Shown in pieces: positions 8,040 through 58,315 of a DNA stretch of 58,315 nt. Below the pieces are notes generated by a model, which worked only from the letters and a program-made list of their open reading frames with translations, was not told the DNA's origin and ran no database searches. The stretch lies in the NCBI GenBank assembly GCA_022813865.1, contig JALDZX010000010.1:496001-554315 (forward strand), given 5' to 3'. The position numbers and the translations under genes are program-made. The stretch's first letter is position 1; each line of letters begins with the position of its first letter. The DNA comes from Xylographa opegraphella (Eukaryota).

Positions 8040-9119
8040 TCAATCCTCTGCAGCCTCCCGCATTAGCTGTTCTTGTGCTTGCATAGCCTTCTTTGCCACC
8101 TCTCCCATATCTCCCTTCTCCTTTCCATCAAAGACTTCCATACTGAACCAGCTCCTGTACCCAGTCTTCAGAACTGCCCTTGCGACCTCGACTACTGGTA
8201 GATATCCTCCCTGGAACGGTAACGGCCGCCAATCATGACTCCACCTCCCCCTCGCCCTTAAGCCTTGCTCATCCGTTCCCTTGTCCATGGGAGGATCCAT
8301 CTTGTACGCATCTGATATCTGCAGGAAGTAGATCATCGCTGGCGGAATGGTCTTGCTCATCTCCTCTAAGCTCTTTTTGAAATCGTGTTCCATTTGCGAA
8401 GTGCTGACGCCAGGTGACTCGAGGAGACCTGATGAGGTCGTGGGGTCCGCCCATTCACTTCCAGCGGTTTGGAAGGTGTCGAGGCAAAGACCAATGTTCG
8501 GGCGATTCGCCAGGCGAACGATGTCGTAAACGGTACGCCATGTCGGGGTGTGGGTCGCCCAGCACCAGTTCTCGTAGGCGAGGCGGAATGAGTGAGGGGC
8601 GAGAAGGTCGGCGAGGGCAGCGAGGTCGGAAGCCAGACTTTGAAACGAAGATGTTATGCTTGGAGAGTCCGACGACCCGACCTAGAGACAATGAGCGGAG
8701 CCCATTGAAGCAAGGGGTGATGATTCGGAGGTCACCTGCAGCATATCCGTCCCTACAGCCTGCATGATCCTGATCCATCCCGCCGCGCGCTCAAATGCAT
8801 CCTTCCGCTCTGGAGACCCCTCCGGCCATCCCTCGAAATTGGAGAATGGCTGGAGAACCAATATCTTCAAGTGCTGATCCGCACATAGCTTCTTGACTTC
8901 CTTGCCAGCGGTGCAGAGACTATCGAAGTCGTTTTCCGCGATCTCCTTCTTGAAGTGGGTGTTCGCGAAGTTCCGCAAGTCTGGGAAGGAGAGCTCGATG
9001 GCATCGAAGCCGGCGGCGGAGATGCTGTCGAGCTTGGCAGGGAGGGGGTCGGTGGGGCTACCAATGCTGCAGCTAGCGTAGCAGGTAGGGACACGGAGAG
9101 GGCCGTTGATTGCGCTCAT
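8040..9119 (-). CDS. Xylose-isomerase-like TIM-barrel protein (AP_endonuc_2 fold), 3-dehydroshikimate dehydratase QutC/Qa-4-like, 2 exons
   Basis: KLDSISAAGFDAIELSFPD, LQPFSNFEGW, LAYENWCW, NIGLCLDTFQ, LQISDA, WSHDWRPLP, FSMEVF. One intron at about 8680-8732. Confidence 0.8.
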
Positions 9120-33212: not shown

Positions 33213-34819
33213 TCAAAAGGTCCGAGGCTCAAGCAGCAGCTCCCCGACGGGGCCCTGCTTGGCGTCAAAGCCAGCCTCTCTCGAGTGGATGCGACGTCCT
33301 CGGAGCCACGTCTCCCTGACCACGCCTCTCAGCATCTTGCCCTGGTACGGTGAGCACTTGTTCCGGAATAGCATCGTGCTCGGCTCGACCTCGAACACGG
33401 CCTCGTCGTCGAAGACGGCCACGTCGCCGTCGTAGCCCACCCGGAGGTCTCCTTTGCGGTGTCCAAGACCGATCTGGCGCGCGGTGTTCCTGCAGCACCA
33501 GCGCACGATGTCTTTGGCGGTGACGCCCCTTTTCTGGCCTTCGGTCCAGAGGATGCTGATTCCCAGCCCTACCGAGCTGACTCCTCCCCAGGCGGCAAAG
33601 AAATCACCTGTCGCCCCGGTGGCGTCGGCAGTAACGGCGCCTGCAATGTAGTCGGGAAGGAGCTTGAGGTCCGGCGTGCATGGCGAATGATCAGACACGA
33701 GGGTCTTGATCACGCTGTCATCTTCGCGGAGTAGTTCGGACCATAGACTGTCTTGGTTTGCCTGCTTCCGAATAGGCGGGCAGCATTTGTGTCTGGTATC
33801 ACCGTTTTTTATCGTCTCGGCTGCAAGCGAGAGGTAGTGGAAGCATGTTTCTGCAGTTATCTTGATGCCTGCGGCTCTGGCGTCCCGTAGTAAAGGAATT
33901 GCTTCAAGCGCGGATAGATGAACAATGTGTAGTGGTAGTCGTGGAGCCAGATGAGCAAGCGAGAGAATTTCGGCAATAGCATAGGTCTCAAATGCTGGCG
34001 GCCGTGATGCTAAGAATGTGTTATATTCGTTCAAGGCACCAGTAGGGGCAAGCGGAGGCGAGGAATGCTGAACATCGTCACCGACGGAATCCGATATGGG
34101 CGGGATCATCTCTGCATGGAACATAAGAGTTGTCGGTTCATCGGCCAGCTCTCCCATGGCCTTGGCAATATCGTTCGAGGACACGGCTGGAAATTCTTCC
34201 ACCTTGTGAACAGAGGTCAGTAATGATTCCGCAGTCGCGCTAACAGTATACATACTCCGCTGTCGATCAAGAAGCCCTTGAACCCTCTGACACCACATTT
34301 GACCAATGGTTTCAGCTCCTTATCATTCCCGGGCACTATCCCGCCATAAAATCCGACATCAACCCAACATTGTCCCTGTGCAGCTCTGATTTTCTCCTCG
34401 AAACCGGCCACTGTTGTGGTGGGGGGAATAGCATTCAGGGGCATGTCGACCACCGTTGTAACTCCTCCGAATGCTGCAGCTCGGGTTCCAGTCCAGAAAC
34501 CCTCCCATTCTGTCCTCCCAGGTTCATTGAGGTGAACATGTGCATCAACGAGTCCGGGTAGCAGTATATGAGGAGAGTGGTCGACGTATACCGTCCCAGG
34601 AGGAAAATCGGATGCAGGTATAATAGAGTGGTGTACGGAGGTTATTTTGCCGGAAGAAAGGGAGATGACTATGGTCGCAGGTGTCAAACGATCGTTGAGG
34701 ATTGCCCTTGACGATGCAAGCACAGTGATTGAGGGTTCATTGGTGATGGAGGAGATGCTGGTTCTCGAGGATGTTCGTGAGACGGTACCGGACTCGTCAC
34801 TAGAGTGGTTAGTTGACAT
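33213..34819 (-). CDS. DAL1: Allantoinase (amidohydrolase superfamily), 2 exons
   Basis: PGLVDAHVHLNEPGRTEWEGF, GGVTTVVDMPLN, GFKGFLIDSGV|EEFP, FHAE, HIVHLS, ETCFHYL, KCCPPIR, SDHSPC, AWGG.SS. Confidence 0.95.
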
Positions 34820-53512: not shown

Positions 53513-55434
53513 CGTTGCAGAAGTTCGCGAGTCAGGTGTGTAGTCAGGGAGAATGGCGAGGTATCCAAGACGGCTGGCGGAAGAGCGTCCGACAGCGTTT
53601 TGATAAATTATGGTAAATTTAGAATGGCTATGTCATAGAGATTCTTATCCAATGATTATGATTAGAAATCCTCACGCCAGCATGCTGACAACGTGCAAGC
53701 ATGATCATGAGAGCCCGTCAGCACTGTTTCTGTGTCTCCTCGGAGACACGAAGCATCAGAAATTCAGGAGGATGTCAATTCCCAACGGGCTTGTTGCTTG
53801 CGATGGAGACTCTGTAGTCTGAGCAGTGACTACGATCCTGCGACTAGCCTACCTATTCTGAAAGAGATGTCCAATCATTTGTTCCTTCGGCGGTTGTGTC
53901 CACGTGCACGACAGTCGCGGAATCCGCCGCTGCGTGGCTTCTTTACATTCTCGCTTGCCCTGGCTTACACCAGTGCTGTGGTGCTGTTTGGCTTGCGAAC
54001 TTGTTCTTTTTGTCTGCCTGCGTAGATGATATAGCCACTTTCGAGGGTCTACTAGGGCCTTGTGTAAAGGCTTCAAGAGATGCTGCCCTGTACTTCCTCC
54101 TGAACAGAAGATTTGCCCGCATACGGAGCACGATTTCACCACTTATCCTTTGAAGAGGCACCAGAATCAAGGATGAATTGAGCGCTGTGCGTAGGGTTCC
54201 ATAGCGCGCTGGTCGGGATGTCCTCTCCGAAGGAAATAGCTGGAGTACTTCAGACATGGTAAAAGTAAAGCTGTATTCAAATACCCATATATTTTAGTAG
54301 GCGATGTTTGGCACTATTGTATGCTTGATGGGTCCTGACGTCTTGTCCATCGGCGTGCTTCACGCAAGGGCCATTGGCATATAGTAATTCGGGTATCGCA
54401 TTTCTGCTCCTCTCGTGGTTAGAGTCTCAGTAGGGGCCGTGGTGAAGGATCTGTGAATGTCTGATTTTATGTGCTATGGAGAGGGTTGCAGACTGTGTGA
54501 CCCAAGGTAATTAGGTAAACGACACAGTGCCACTCATACGGGGCTCTGCGAGGATCCTACCTGCTTCTGTTTGCAGCTGTTCTGAATGGTATTCACTTTG
54601 AATTATATCATAGTCGAGTTCCGTTGATTGGGAACCAGCTACGATTCCTTATGCAGTGCTCATGAATGCTGACATGGACATACGAAGCCGTCTTCATTTG
54701 TCCTTGTCTACCACATTACTAACATCCCTCCATGGGTGGCGGAAAACCCACTGCGCCGGAAAATATAATTGGTACTTTGACTTCAAGCGACTAGAGCTCT
54801 GCGCACATGTCGAGCTTTACTATTATCATCGTATACATCGTGTGCTGTGGCTACTTTAAAACAATGAGAACTTGTCTAACGTGAAAATTACATTCGCATC
54901 GTTGCTATTTCGCCTGGTTCGCTAAGAGTCTTCTTTTACGGCGAAACAATTTTCATTCTCTAAAACACCACTTTGATGTCTATACTGCTTATAATACATA
55001 TACAAGGATGATATCCAAGCCTTAGAGCCTTATTATGATAATAGGAAGTCATCATAAGCTTTATGCCTGCTGTTGCGCGCAATTCTATACAAGGTCGCTA
55101 CCCCGATCGGTACCTCCGATCAAAGCACTTGCCGATTCTGGCTAGCGCATAATGACCCTGAACGCTCCATGTAATGGTTCCGCTGTAATTTACGATCCAT
55201 CTTCTTTTATCGCAGTCTTATGAGGCTGACTGTGATAGGCCGAGTATCGAATTGAAACTGAGGTGATTGCCCTTCCTTCTATGAATCCCTCCTTTGTCTT
55301 GAATGCACATTTCTCGATGCTTATTGAGAGGTAAAGTCCTTATCTAAGTCAGAAGTTATTTCAGGCAGTCGACAGGCCATAAACATGCTTCGGATGCTAG
55401 TGTCAAGAAATGTATCGATCCAGATATCATATGC

Positions 55435-56326
55435 TCACTTCCCTCCAAAATTGATTCCAGTGACTCCACCATTGATGATCCCAGCTTGAAAGCCCAAGTT
55501 CTGATCGCCAAATATCACCATGTTTGCACGGCTCTGGTTCCCTGCAGCTTTTGCAACAGCTTCTTCCTGCGACTTAGACAGCAGCTCGTCCAGCAGCTTC
55601 CGTAACGCATTCACTGCCTTACGTTCTTCTTCCAGCTGCCGCAATGCCTCAGCTTTGCCTTCCTTGGGTGCAGCCACTTCCTCATCATCACTGCTGAGGT
55701 TCAGCTCCTCGAGTTTGGTCTCTAATACTACTAGCTGCTTATCCGTTGTGGTAATAGCACCCTTGACCTCGGCCTGCTTTGTAGATATTGTCTTCTTGAT
55801 CTCTTCCGTGATGTGACTATGGCGGACGGAGCTGTATCTGCAAGGAAAGGTTAGCTCAACTGCCGCACGGAGGCGATCAAACTGGAGTTACTTACAAGGT
55901 TGCTATACTGACAACGGAATTAATCGTAAGCTTGCAGTTTATAAGCTGCTCTGACATCGCCTTAATTTGCCCCTGCTTGAAGAATCCGACATTAGCTCGG
56001 TCCTGCCATGCTAATTTTTCATCTTCTGAATGTCTAGTCCACCGCTGGAGATCGGTCCTGAAGAGATCGCATGCCTGTGTGCAGCTGCTAATTGTCGTCT
56101 TTGACTACTCAGCTACACCTGGGCCAAGTGCCTCCCATTCTCTATCCTTTACACTTTGGAGCAATGTGAGTGCCGTGTCGACAGAGTGCACATCCTTTAC
56201 TAGGCGCTCGACAGTTTTTGGCGCATCTTTCAGCTTCTGCAGGTCATTGAGAAGCAGTCTTGTGCCGCGTAAGGCTGGCACAATGATGCCAACGACACCG
56301 GCAACAACGCTTAGAGGATCAGATAT
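55435..56326 (-). pseudogene. HeLo-like (HELL) domain effector with C-terminal PP-type amyloid motif (HELLP-like), 2 exons; inactivated
   Basis: (ATA)SDPLSVVAGVVGIIVPAL....LLNDLQKLKDAP hydrophobic N-terminal helix typical of HeLo-like domains; intron 55838-55895; ends VIFGDQNLGFQAGIINGGVTGINFGGK*. ATA sits at the start-codon position (56324-56326) and there is an in-frame TAG at 56105-56107. Confidence 0.85.
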
Positions 56327-56540
56327 TTGTGGCTAACAGAGGGAAGCTAATTGAGACAAATAAAGGAACAGTCTCGGGCCTCAGCCAAGTTCTTACCCTC
56401 AAATTCGGGGCTTCGAAAAAACTGAAGAGGAAATTTTGGTGACATTGGCCGCTAGCCTGAACATGCCTGAGATCACAACGCCAGGCTCGACTTCCGTCCG
56501 CACTCCGCCATAAAGACTCCCGATCTCCCACGGCATCGCA

Positions 56541-58315
56541 ATGGCGTCGGCGATATGCTTTGACCATCAGAACTCCGGCTTTCAAGCCGGGATCATCAAC
56601 GGCTCGGTCAATGCTGAGGTCCATCACCATGCCCCTCCCCGTAAGTTGTCAAAGGTCCAAGCCGATCGGCACTAACAGCCCTGGCCCAGAACGACCCGAA
56701 ACACCACCGAATCCATCTGCCATCGTACCCTTTGCCCGCGACACAGACTTCATCGAGCGAGGTGCGATACTAGATCAGATCCACTATAAATGTGCCGTGC
56801 CAGGTTCTCGGATTGCGCTCGTCGGCCTGGGCGGCGTTGGGTGGGTACGAACGCATTCGCAGATACGGACGGCTGACTGTGGAGAAGCAAGTCGCAGCTT
56901 GCCATCGAATACGCGTACCGGATTCAAGAGCGATCGCCTGAGACGTGGGTCTTCTGGGCTCACACGAGCAATGCGGCACGGTTTGAGCAGAGCTACCGGG
57001 TCATTGCAAACTACGTTAAGATCTCGGAGCGACGGAACCCAAAGGCGGACATATTTCAGCTCGTGCACGATTGGCTGCGCAACGAAAGGAAGGGAAAATG
57101 GGTCCTTATACTTGATAATATTGACGATGCGAGCTTTCTTCTCGAGGCTCGAGGTACCGAAGGTGAGAACTCGCAGCCACTCGTGTCGTATCTTCCACAA
57201 TCTCGGAATGGCTCCATTCTTATAACAACCCGAAGCAGAAACGTGGCACAGAAGCTCGTTGAACAGTGTAATATTATCGCAGTCGAGCCAATGAGTAGGG
57301 CGGATGCGCTGGCACTATTTGAGAAAAAGCTCGGAAAGCAGAGGGAGAGCCAGGATATCGCTGAGCTTGCCGTGGCGCTTGAGTTTATGCCGCTTGCTAT
57401 TGTTAAAGCGGCGGCATACATTTCTCAACGAGCACCTCGATGTTCAGTACGACAGTACCTCGAAGATTTGAAAAAAAAGCGATCGCAAGAGAGCCAGTCT
57501 CCTTAACTACGAAGGCGAACAGCTCCGTCGAGATCGGGACGCGAAGAACTCTATTATCATTACATGGCAAATATCGTTCGATCACGTTCGTAAGATTAGA
57601 CCGTCAGCTGCTGATTTGCTGTCGCTCATGAGCTTTTTCGATCGTCAAGGGATTCCAGAGGCTCTACTTCGAGATCGAGCCGAGCAGGGAAATAGCGAGC
57701 AAAATCAGGAAGAACACGATAGCGATAATGAACAGGATTACGATAAGGATAATATATCAGAATGCAGCGATGAGTTTGAAGACGATATAGTGGCACTACG
57801 AAACTTCTCGTTCATCTCTATTAATGCAGATGGGAGCACCTTTGAAATGCACAGCCTAGTGCAGCTAGCCACTCGAAAGTGGCTTGAGGTACACAGCCAG
57901 CTGGAACATTGGAAGCAGCAGTTCGTTAGAAATCTTTGTGCAGAGTTTCCAACCGGGGAGTATGAAAATTGGATAAGATGTCAAGCGCTGTTTCCACATG
58001 CAAAATCAGCAGCAGCGCAGCGGCCGGAAACACAAGATTCGTTACGAGACTGGGCCTCAATACTATACAACGCAGCATGGTACGCGTGGAAGGTAGGAAT
58101 GCAGTAGAGGCGGAGAAGATGTCGGTTCAGGCGTTGAAAGTAAGAAAGAGGATCCTCGGTCGAGAGCATGAAGATACGCTGAATAGTATGGCAATGGTAG
58201 GCCTAGCGTATGAGCTAAGAGGCTTATGGGAGGCAGCTGAAAAGCTGCAATTGCAAGTAATGGAAACGAGCAAGAACAAACTCGGAGCGGACCATCCTTC
58301 CACGCTGAGCAGCAT
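56541..58315 (+). pseudogene. Fungal NLR: N-terminal PP-type amyloid motif + NB-ARC + TPR (PNT1-like); two frameshifts; runs off the window end
   Basis: Exon 1 MASAICFDHQNSGFQAGIINGSV; intron 56641-56689; VPFARDTDF; Walker A GLGGVG|KSQLA (intron 56841-56887); Walker B WVLILDNIDD; ILITTR; PLAI..AAAYI; TWQISF; MHSLVQ; TPRs LG.EH.DTL.SM and LGADHPSTLSS. Frameshifts at about 57471-57478 and about 58098. Confidence 0.9.

Follow-up and report, generated by a model that had tools for sequence, protein, structure and literature searches.

Two divergent genes lie head to head at the end of the window, i.e., the whole 58,315 bp stretch of DNA that was analyzed (Table 1). The minus strand gene encodes a HeLo-like effector and the plus strand gene encodes an NLR. 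Their start positions are 214 bp apart, with the NLR ATG at position 56541 and the first codon of the effector, an ATA, at 56326–56324. Both genes have introns as well as lesions; the effector has one intron (58 nt) and the NLR has introns of 49 nt and 47 nt. This spacing and these interruptions agree with what the earlier note had described. Among annotated proteins, the closest belong to the lichen-forming genus Xylographa.

Table 1. Positions of the features of the gene pair, numbered within the window. X2, X3 and X7 are close relatives; P0084 is an annotated ortholog of the NLR.
Feature	Position	Strand	Basis
Effector exon 2, coiled linker and C-terminal PP-type motif, stop codon 55435–55437	55435–55837	-	homolog alignment
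Effector PP-type amyloid motif, FGDQNLGFQAGIINGGV	55462–55512	-	sequence; weak PF17046 match
Effector intron, 58 nt, GTAAGT..CAG	55838–55895	-	gene model from homolog alignment; RNA contig of X7
Effector exon 1, HeLo-like domain	55896–56326	-	PF17111; AlphaFold2 model
In-frame TAG, effector codon 74	56105–56107	-	homologs mostly Gln; G at 56107 in X2 and X3, giving CAG
ATA at the ATG start position of the homologs	56324–56326	-	homolog comparison
Shared intergenic region between divergent genes, 214 bp	56327–56540	.	sequence
NLR exon 1, Met and N-terminal PP-type motif, MASAICFDHQNSGFQAGIINGSV...	56541–56640	+	matches P0084
NLR PP-type amyloid motif, FDHQNSGFQAGIINGSV	56559–56609	+	sequence; weak PF17046 match
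NLR intron 1, 49 nt, GTAAGT..CAG	56641–56689	+	spliced product agrees with P0084 across the joint
NLR exon 2, ends in first part of P-loop	56690–56840	+	comparison with P0084
NLR intron 2, 47 nt, GTGGGT..AAG	56841–56887	+	splicing restores GLGGVGKSQLA as in P0084
NLR exon 3, NB-ARC, DUF7779 and first TPRs, cut by window end	56888–58315	+	profile matches; P0084
A8 run, +1 frameshift; frame then stops at 57504–57506 (codon 290)	57471–57478	+	one base fewer in X2 and X3
GG in place of GGG in relatives, -1 frameshift	58096–58097	+	extra G behind 58095 in X2 and X3

A profile search shows that the minus strand product is a HeLo-like protein, as had been proposed, with a match to PF17111 (66.6 bits, E 2.6e-18, cut-off 27.2) when the in-frame stop of the gene is read as X. 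Over its full length the protein aligns with 28 homologs of ~277 aa. There are at least 81 full-length homologs of ~277 aa with the same tail, and PF17111 was found in all 18 of the 18 effector homologs tested. Exon 2 is identical to the corresponding part of annotated protein P0204. An RNA contig from the close relative X7 joins position 55837 to 55896 and skips exactly the 58 nt of the intron; this joint is absent from every DNA run. The X7 RNA has no cover over 56007–58127 and hence bears neither way on NLR exon 1. At the 5' end of the gene, an in-frame TAG is present two codons upstream of the ATA at 56324–56326.

The AlphaFold2 model of the effector N-domain is a helical bundle with a mean pLDDT of 83.6. 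Comparisons of the N-domain by VIA-align give Z 10.8 with Rx-CC and Z 9.0 with NRG1.1 CC-R, scores that are equaled by unrelated helical proteins, and Z 9.5 (rmsd 3.0, 114 aligned) with the MLKL N-terminal domain 6ux8_A, a value within the range of unrelated helical bundles. A Foldseek search of the effector model against the PDB gave nothing at E <= 0.001. The fold search cannot confirm the claim that the domain is MLKL-like, because unrelated helical bundles score as high as MLKL and the plant CC domains.

The plus strand gene was likewise correctly recognized as an NB-ARC/DUF7779/TPR NLR that starts with the shared motif. Profile searches show NB-ARC (5.8e-07, 29.5 bits), DUF7779 (1.6e-10, 41.5 bits) and TPR_10 (1e-14, 54.4 bits), and TPR_12 is also matched. 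The annotated ortholog P0084 has NB-ARC, DUF7779 and TPR domains as in the NLR of the window. The window sequence follows P0084 in three successive frames, with 273/280, 207/209 and 53/53 matching positions. P0084 is open across the A8 site, where it has YLEDFKKSDRK, and at the -1 frameshift site (58096–58097) it reads WRVGNAVEAEKM.

The two genes share a 17-residue motif, FDHQNSGFQAGIINGSV at residues 7–23 of the NLR and FGDQNLGFQAGIINGGV at the extreme C-terminus of the effector. A re-reading of the sequence gives the same likeness as first claimed (13/17 aa and 41/51 nt), with a shared codon at 10 of the 13 identical residues. When the 33-aa head of the NLR and the 41-aa tail of the effector were aligned by BLASTP in one single comparison, there were 14/22 identities with E 7e-09. 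As DNA, the motif pair forms a 55-nt inverted repeat that is 80% complementary, with 1046 nt between the arms. When the entire 58,315 bp was scanned in six frames, GFQAG appeared solely at the two motif sites, and NxGxQxG at three places, i.e., both motifs and an unrelated match at 34504–34524.

The definition of the PP motif is drawn from PMC5485727, PMC9815663 and bioRxiv 10.1101/2020.01.06.895854, and the full pseudo-palindrome pattern is given as NxGxQxGxN (PMC9815663). The NxGxQxG core is present in both copies, as N-L-G-F-Q-A-G 15 residues before the stop in the effector and as N-S-G-F-Q-A-G at residues 11–17 of the NLR. Neither copy has the strict pseudo-palindrome NxGxQxGxN; both have G-I-I-N, with the second N one residue further on, and this shifted N is also present in most family members. 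The matches to PF17046 (Ses_B) are weak and below the gathering score of 23.2, at 17.6 bits (E 0.0036) for the NLR motif and 13.2 bits (E 0.088) for the effector motif. PF17046 is the sole Pfam family matched by either motif piece at E <= 10, and similar sub-threshold matches are found in 5/18 effector homologs. At the same limit (E <= 10) neither piece matches the HET-s or NACHT_sigma Pfam models, which we take to be those of the HRAM (HET-s) and sigma amyloid motifs. In bioRxiv 10.1101/2020.01.06.895854, PF17046 is named as the PP motif in the methods and in one figure legend but is given to the sigma motif in the introduction; PF17106 is also named in this preprint among such motif models.

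The arrangement is a property of a family and not of this locus only. Synteny of the pair, a check that was proposed in the earlier note, was found to recur. Of 44 related metagenome loci, 23 have a divergent NLR motif upstream of the effector, head to head, with gaps of 172–381 bp (median 217). The head-to-head arrangement with a gap of ~200 bp is seen in 19 distinct related loci. The motif also stands at the start of every candidate partner NLR (15/15).

Both genes are broken and the module is dead in this genome. The effector has no ATG and has a TAG at codon 74, and the NLR is frameshifted by +1 and by -1; therefore the pair is not a working module here. The original reading of a two-gene module holds for the HeLo-like effector, the NLR, the shared motif and their adjacency, but not for function in this genome, given the missing ATG, the in-frame stop and the two frameshifts. 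The NLR product ends at codon 290, ahead of the winged-helix and TPR sensor part. The close relatives X2 and X3 carry CAG, A7 and GGG at the effector stop and the two NLR frameshift sites, respectively, and a contig from the probable source run of the window (X1) is the same as the window at these sites. A sister organism carries a second, independent frameshift in the NLR. Compared with X3, the effector has eight non-synonymous and two synonymous codon differences, and at four of these codons it is the window that departs from the family consensus. These codon differences look like relaxed constraint. The decay is recent, is specific to this lineage and hit both partners.

RIP was considered as a cause of the lesions and rejected. 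The window has T/A where X2 has C/G at 31 places and the opposite direction is seen at 27; there is no RIP signature, because the differences are unskewed and the GC content is 47–54%. The two effector substitutions are both of the CpA-to-TpA type. The in-frame stops at 8682 and 47225, which fall in other genes of the window, were also considered as lesions and were ruled out, as both are inside ordinary introns.

That the module is intact and working, with the four lesions representing assembly errors, is extremely unlikely. Both frameshifts are in homopolymer runs (A8 and GG), which are typical sites of sequencing error, and the lesion check probably rests on the same reads as the window. 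However, the separately built X1 contig, at a depth of 163, has 0 differences from the window over 55300–58281 and no variant is listed, a control for the assembler alone. Run length is at issue in only two of the four lesions, the other two being base substitutions, and large housekeeping genes in the window are open, e.g., a 967-aa UGGT and a 486-aa Rpn3. The public annotation likewise found only a 154-aa effector remnant, which starts from an internal ATG. Another proposal is that this remnant, which has lost most of the HeLo-like domain but retains the PP motif, is produced and serves as a harmless prion-former or decoy, in the way that HET-s relates to HET-S. The remnant open reading frame from the ATG at 55957 is open, has the entire linker and motif, and gives no PF17111 match, and a passage in the discussion of PMC7885112 asks if such HeLo-altered HELLP prion forms occur in nature. 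Yet there are seven out-of-frame ATGs (56247 to 55992) ahead of the ATG at 55957 within the exon, so few scanning ribosomes would get that far. The partner NLR is also broken, and the excess of non-synonymous differences from X3 (8 to 2) looks like relaxed constraint. A functional remnant is thus very doubtful.

The likeness of the two motifs was attributed in the earlier note to copying or concerted evolution between the partners. As a property of the family this does not hold, as motifs of partners resemble each other no more than those of non-partners do. At the protein level, partner motifs share 10.81 of 17 residues and non-partner motifs 10.58 (permutation p 0.17), and at the codon level the same codons are used at 77/175 positions in partners versus 964/2080 in non-partners. 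Core codons are kept family-wide in both genes, the central Gly as GGC in 57/63 motifs and the central Gln as CAA in 46/63, while the neighboring Gly and Gln codons of the motif vary freely. The likeness appears to come mainly from a single consensus that is strongly conserved throughout the family on both partners, and general copying would not be needed to explain it.

A local conversion event at the window pair is possible, since this pair lies in the upper tail, among the top 1% in nucleotide likeness. The more specific proposal, that a recent gene conversion across the inverted repeat homogenized the motif-coding DNA of both partners, is unlikely, although several observations are consistent with it. 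The 10 shared codons among 13 identical residues compare with 5.1 expected from the codon use of the window (P 0.005). A likeness of at least 41 nt is reached by only 2/192 non-partner comparisons and 10 shared codons by 1/192, whereas 2/16 partner comparisons (the window and locus L021) reach such likeness (Fisher p 0.016). In addition, the fourth position of the NLR motif is Gln (CAG), a residue present in 27/39 effector motifs and in 0/24 NLR motifs. Against this, conversion is not a general process, as the other 15 partner comparisons have a same-codon share of 67/162 versus 964/2080 in non-partners. The P value for the window is only 0.026 against the non-partner rate, and the pair was picked for looking alike. 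The GGC and CAA core codons are conserved throughout the family in effector and NLR motifs alike, the effector motif of L021 is closer to the NLR motif of the window (44 nt) than is the window's own partner, and the effector-versus-NLR codon score of the NLR motif (-1.1) is inside the ordinary NLR range of -25.3 to +6.6. A broader proposal starts from the GGC and CAA core codons, kept in both partner genes across many fungi, and from the nucleotide likeness of the window pair and of L021, which is far above that of non-partners. The amyloid core would be constrained at both the DNA and protein levels, either by recurrent short conversions between effector tail and receptor head that keep cross-seeding, or by selection on translation of the core; a bolder addition has the 154-aa remnant as a HET-s-like prion-only form. 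This is less likely still than the single conversion. Conservation of a family-wide consensus is the preferred explanation.

Comparison with known systems places the pair with HELLP/PNT1 of Podospora anserina, a two-gene cluster with a HeLo-like effector that has a C-terminal PP motif (described in PMC7885112). According to the same source, PNT1 is an NB-ARC/TPR NLR with the motif within the first ~30 residues, and it has variable TPR repeats that resemble one another. The Podospora partners are reported there to be 32–48% identical over the PP regions, while the window partners are identical at 13/17 residues in the core. Unlike the Podospora pair, both genes are disrupted in the Xylographa window. 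The three-gene PP cluster HELLP/SBP/PNT1 of Chaetomium globosum is similar in motif type and in the kinds of receptor and effector domains (PMC5485727 and PMC7885112), but has a third PP-motif gene, a lipase. A six-frame scan gave no third PP-motif gene in the 58-kb window, which does not include the DNA past the NLR. The likeness to the Podospora and Chaetomium systems is one of domains, motif and layout as described for them. In HET-S/NWD2 of Podospora an adjacent NLR likewise imposes an amyloid fold on its pore-forming partner by templating, but the motif family (HRAM), the NLR (NACHT/WD) and the effector domain (HeLo) are different. The Bell/BASS3 NLR pairs differ in being bacterial and in having other effector and NLR families (bioRxiv 10.1101/2020.01.06.895854).

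By analogy with the Podospora and Chaetomium systems, an intact NB-ARC/TPR receptor would sense a ligand via its TPR array and then oligomerize. The clustered N-terminal PP motifs of the receptor would fold into an amyloid nucleus. Templated by this nucleus, the HeLo-like protein, whose gene is 214 bp away on the opposite strand, would take up the same fold in its own C-terminal PP motif. The released HeLo-like helical domain would then attack the membrane and kill the cell.

The locus is very probably a HELLP/PNT1-type amyloid-signaling module of a filamentous ascomycete that is here a recent pseudogene pair, the likeness of its motifs reflecting mainly a family-wide consensus on both partners. 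The pair belongs to the already known HELLP/PNT1 kind and reveals no new mechanism; what is new is this decayed member. With it, a lichen-forming lineage joins the fungi that have PP-motif NLR/HeLo-like death modules, in a sub-family whose head-to-head order, gap of ~200 bp and near-invariant motif persist in several classes of ascomycetes. The pair represents a small, clean example of birth-and-death turnover among fungal immune-type genes.

The effector and the NLR lie head to head, and their gene models are listed in the table below. Profile searches bear out the earlier note in its assignment of a HeLo-like effector and an NB-ARC/TPR receptor. With X in place of its stop, effector exon 1 has a Pfam match to PF17111 (66.6 bits, E 2.6e-18). 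This family is currently named PigL_N in Pfam, and its accession is the one used for HeLo-like proteins in a passage of PMC9815663. Pieces of the NLR match NB-ARC (5.8e-07), DUF7779 (1.6e-10) and TPR_10/TPR_12 (1e-14) in Pfam. The AlphaFold2 model of effector exon 1 is a helical bundle (pLDDT 83.6), for which Foldseek gave no match at E <= 0.001. VIA-align places it near potato Rx-CC (Z 10.8), NRG1.1 CC-R (Z 9.0) and the MLKL N-terminal domain (Z 9.5, rmsd 3.0, 114 aligned); because unrelated helical proteins reach equal scores, the model is rated as consistent with an MLKL-like fold of the effector N-domain.

Features of the effector and NLR genes in the window
Feature	Position	Strand	Basis or remark
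Effector exon 1	56326-55896	-	gene model
Effector intron, 58 nt, GTAAGT..CAG	55895-55838	-	gene model
Effector exon 2	55837-55435	-	gene model
Effector PP-type motif FGDQNLGFQAGIINGGV	55462-55512	-	translation
NLR exon 1	56541-56640	+	gene model
NLR PP-type motif FDHQNSGFQAGIINGSV	56559-56609	+	translation
NLR intron 1, 49 nt	between 56640 and 56690	+	gene model
NLR exon 2	56690-56840	+	gene model
NLR intron 2, 47 nt	between 56840 and 56888	+	removal restores P-loop GLGGVGKSQLA
NLR exon 3	56888 to window end	+	gene model

The window ends within the TPR units of the NLR, which are near-identical and collapsed about eightfold. This follows from a rise in depth from 163 to 1345 in the probable source run at 58226–58315 and from contigs that loop back 90 bases there with 36 letters between, i.e., a 126-nt (42-aa) period. 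The annotated NLR ortholog P0084, likewise partial, breaks off in the same repeat region.

The two pseudo-palindromic (PP) type motifs translate as first reported and are identical at 13/17 residues and 41/51 bases. The 33-residue NLR head and the last 41 effector residues have 14/22 identities (BLASTP, E 7e-09 for a single comparison). In the DNA, the two segments make up an inverted repeat of 55 nt whose arms lie 1046 nt apart and are 80% complementary. Scanned in all six frames over its full length, the window has GFQAG at the two motif sites only and NxGxQxG at three sites, the two motifs and 34504–34524(-). The third site is inside an amidohydrolase-family gene, has flanks unlike PP motifs and is taken as a chance occurrence unrelated to the pair. 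Both motifs contain NxGxQxG, and their only Pfam match at E <= 10 is to PF17046 (Ses_B), but at 17.6 and 13.2 bits both fall below the gathering score of 23.2, and the second N of the core, NxGxQxGxN according to a passage of PMC9815663, is shifted one residue further on. PF17046 denotes the PP motif in the methods and a figure legend of bioRxiv 10.1101/2020.01.06.895854, whose introduction ties the number to sigma.

The distance of 214 bp between the NLR ATG (56541) and the first effector codon (56326–56324) is as previously claimed and is typical of the family. Of the metagenome loci, 44 extend 300 nt or more beyond the effector start on its upstream side; 23 of these (19 distinct) have an opposite-strand NLR-type motif there by a 9/17 criterion, with gaps of 172–381 bp (median 217); in the other 21 none was found by this criterion. 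The divergent layout recurs in related loci, and a putative promoter shared by the pair is plausible. Three loci have an effector amid two NLR-head motifs: L013 (2182–2232(-) and 4682–4732(+)), L020 (2193–2243(-) and 4595–4645(+)) and L046 (347–397(-) and 1807–1857(+)). The two motifs are identical or near-identical, one divergent upstream and one same-strand downstream, which suggests two receptors serving one effector.

The proposal that the motif was copied between partners or evolves concertedly does not apply generally. Sixteen effector/NLR pairs (3 with adjacent locus tags, 12 by the proxy of equal-sized host contigs, and the window) were compared as proteins. Partner motifs have 10.81/17 residues in common versus 10.58 for non-partners (permutation p 0.17), and the window effector motif is closer to a Trapelia coarctata NLR motif (14/17) than to that of its own partner. 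At the DNA level, 80 metagenome loci encoding relatives were scanned for both motifs; with 3 duplicate loci and loci with one motif type set aside, 13 distinct pairs gave 16 comparisons, three loci with two NLRs being counted twice. Identical residues have the same codon in 77/175 cases for partners (67/162 without the window) versus 964/2080 for non-partners, so that partner-specific nucleotide likeness is absent as a rule.

A short local gene conversion between the effector and NLR motifs of the window is a separate matter, and we consider it unlikely. The window pair is extreme, as is that of L021: these are the 2/16 partner comparisons with at least 10 codons in common, versus 1/192 for non-partners (Fisher p 0.016). 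Position 4 of the window NLR motif is also Gln, the effector-typical state (27/39 effector, 0/24 NLR motifs). However, these likeness statistics are inflated, since the pair was flagged for looking alike. Within the window, 10/13 identical residues have the same codon versus 5.1 expected (naive P 0.005), or a binomial P of 0.026 against the non-partner rate. Part of the naive excess arises because codons are conserved family-wide: the central Gly is GGC in 36/39 effector and 21/24 NLR motifs (57/63 together), the central Gln is CAA in 27/39 and 19/24 (46/63 together), and the first Phe is TTT in 25/39 and 20/24. Across the 80 loci and the window, with locus kinship uncorrected, the core synonymous codons (motif codons 7 and 9) are kept by position and flanking Gly and Gln codons vary.

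Both genes carry lesions. The effector start is Ile (ATA), where Met stands at or beside that column in 28/28 aligned homologs, with an in-frame TAG two codons upstream; codon 74 is TAG, mostly Gln in homologs. Along P0084 the NLR changes frame twice, at an A8 run (57471–57478) and at GG (58096–58097), with matches of 273/280, 207/209 and 53/53 in the three frames in turn; translation from its own ATG stops at codon 290. A Logan contig over 55300–58281 from X1, the run that may be the source of the window DNA, has a depth of 163 and shows no difference or gap, so the lesions are independent of the assembler. Other samples yielded two close relatives, X2 with 70 and X3 with 68 differences from the window. 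In each, G at 56107 makes the codon CAG, the A8 run is one A shorter, and a further G follows 58095, which makes the nonsense codon and the two frameshifts private to the lineage of the window. Besides its intact A7 and GGG states, X3 is one base short at 57543, which looks like a separate frameshift in its NLR and brings the broken receptors to 2/3 of the close genomes sampled. X2 is without 19 nt at 56492, in the intergenic stretch that the two genes share, shortly before the NLR start. Among the differences listed between the effector and X3, at least 10 codons are changed, 8 non-synonymously and 2 synonymously, and at K40, Q74, Q129 and S222 the relatives have the family consensus from which the window departs. 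This fits relaxed constraint. Elsewhere in the window, frames are open in GH76, a 6PGD-like gene, UGGT (967 aa), Rpn3, polyprenyl synthetase, UDP-glucose dehydrogenase and others, and all in-frame stops checked are within introns.

A search with effector exon 2 gave 81 proteins of 238–2000 aa (E <= 0.01), nearly all about 277 aa with PF17111, which was found in 18/18 rescanned. They occur in Leotiomycetes, Dothideomycetes, Eurotiomycetes, Sordariomycetes and lichen-forming fungi. Their alignment with the window product runs over the full length, and they have the tail motif in common; the closest is 79% identical. The NB-ARC piece retrieves 1342 proteins (E <= 1e-20). At the top (97%) is P0084, an NCBI entry listed as a partial Xylographa soralifera protein, which has the same exon 1 and motif at its start. 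The 154-aa protein P0204, a Xylographa opegraphella entry that NCBI labels hypothetical, is identical in every residue to what the spliced effector encodes when read from the internal ATG at 55957. This makes that species, or a near-identical genome, the very probable origin of the window; public annotation could call only the effector 3' remnant.

In the wood-decay metatranscriptome X7, contigs span 55305–56003 (some of effector exon 1 and the 3' end of the gene) with the intron removed, at about 97–98% identity. One RNA contig joins 55837 exactly to 55896, a joint present in 0/3 DNA runs. As it bears the relatives' variants, it shows transcription and the modelled splicing in a close relative of this fungus, which expresses the effector on decaying wood, and not in the window's own copy.

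In architecture, the pair agrees with Podospora HELLP/PNT1 and Chaetomium HELLP/SBP/PNT1. In HELLP/PNT1 systems, according to sections of PMC7885112 and PMC5485727, the NLR N-terminal and effector C-terminal PP regions are prion-forming, and killing by the HeLo-like protein is set off by the prion form. By analogy, the NLR would oligomerise, its motif would template the fold on the effector motif, and the effector would attack the membrane. A literature search of limited scope found no paper on such a module in lichen-forming fungi. Fungal NLR pseudogenisation is frequent in the Podospora species complex, as described in part of PMC13449251. With its established domain content, motif, layout and lineage-specific lesions, the window pair is a new, recently decayed representative of a known system type.
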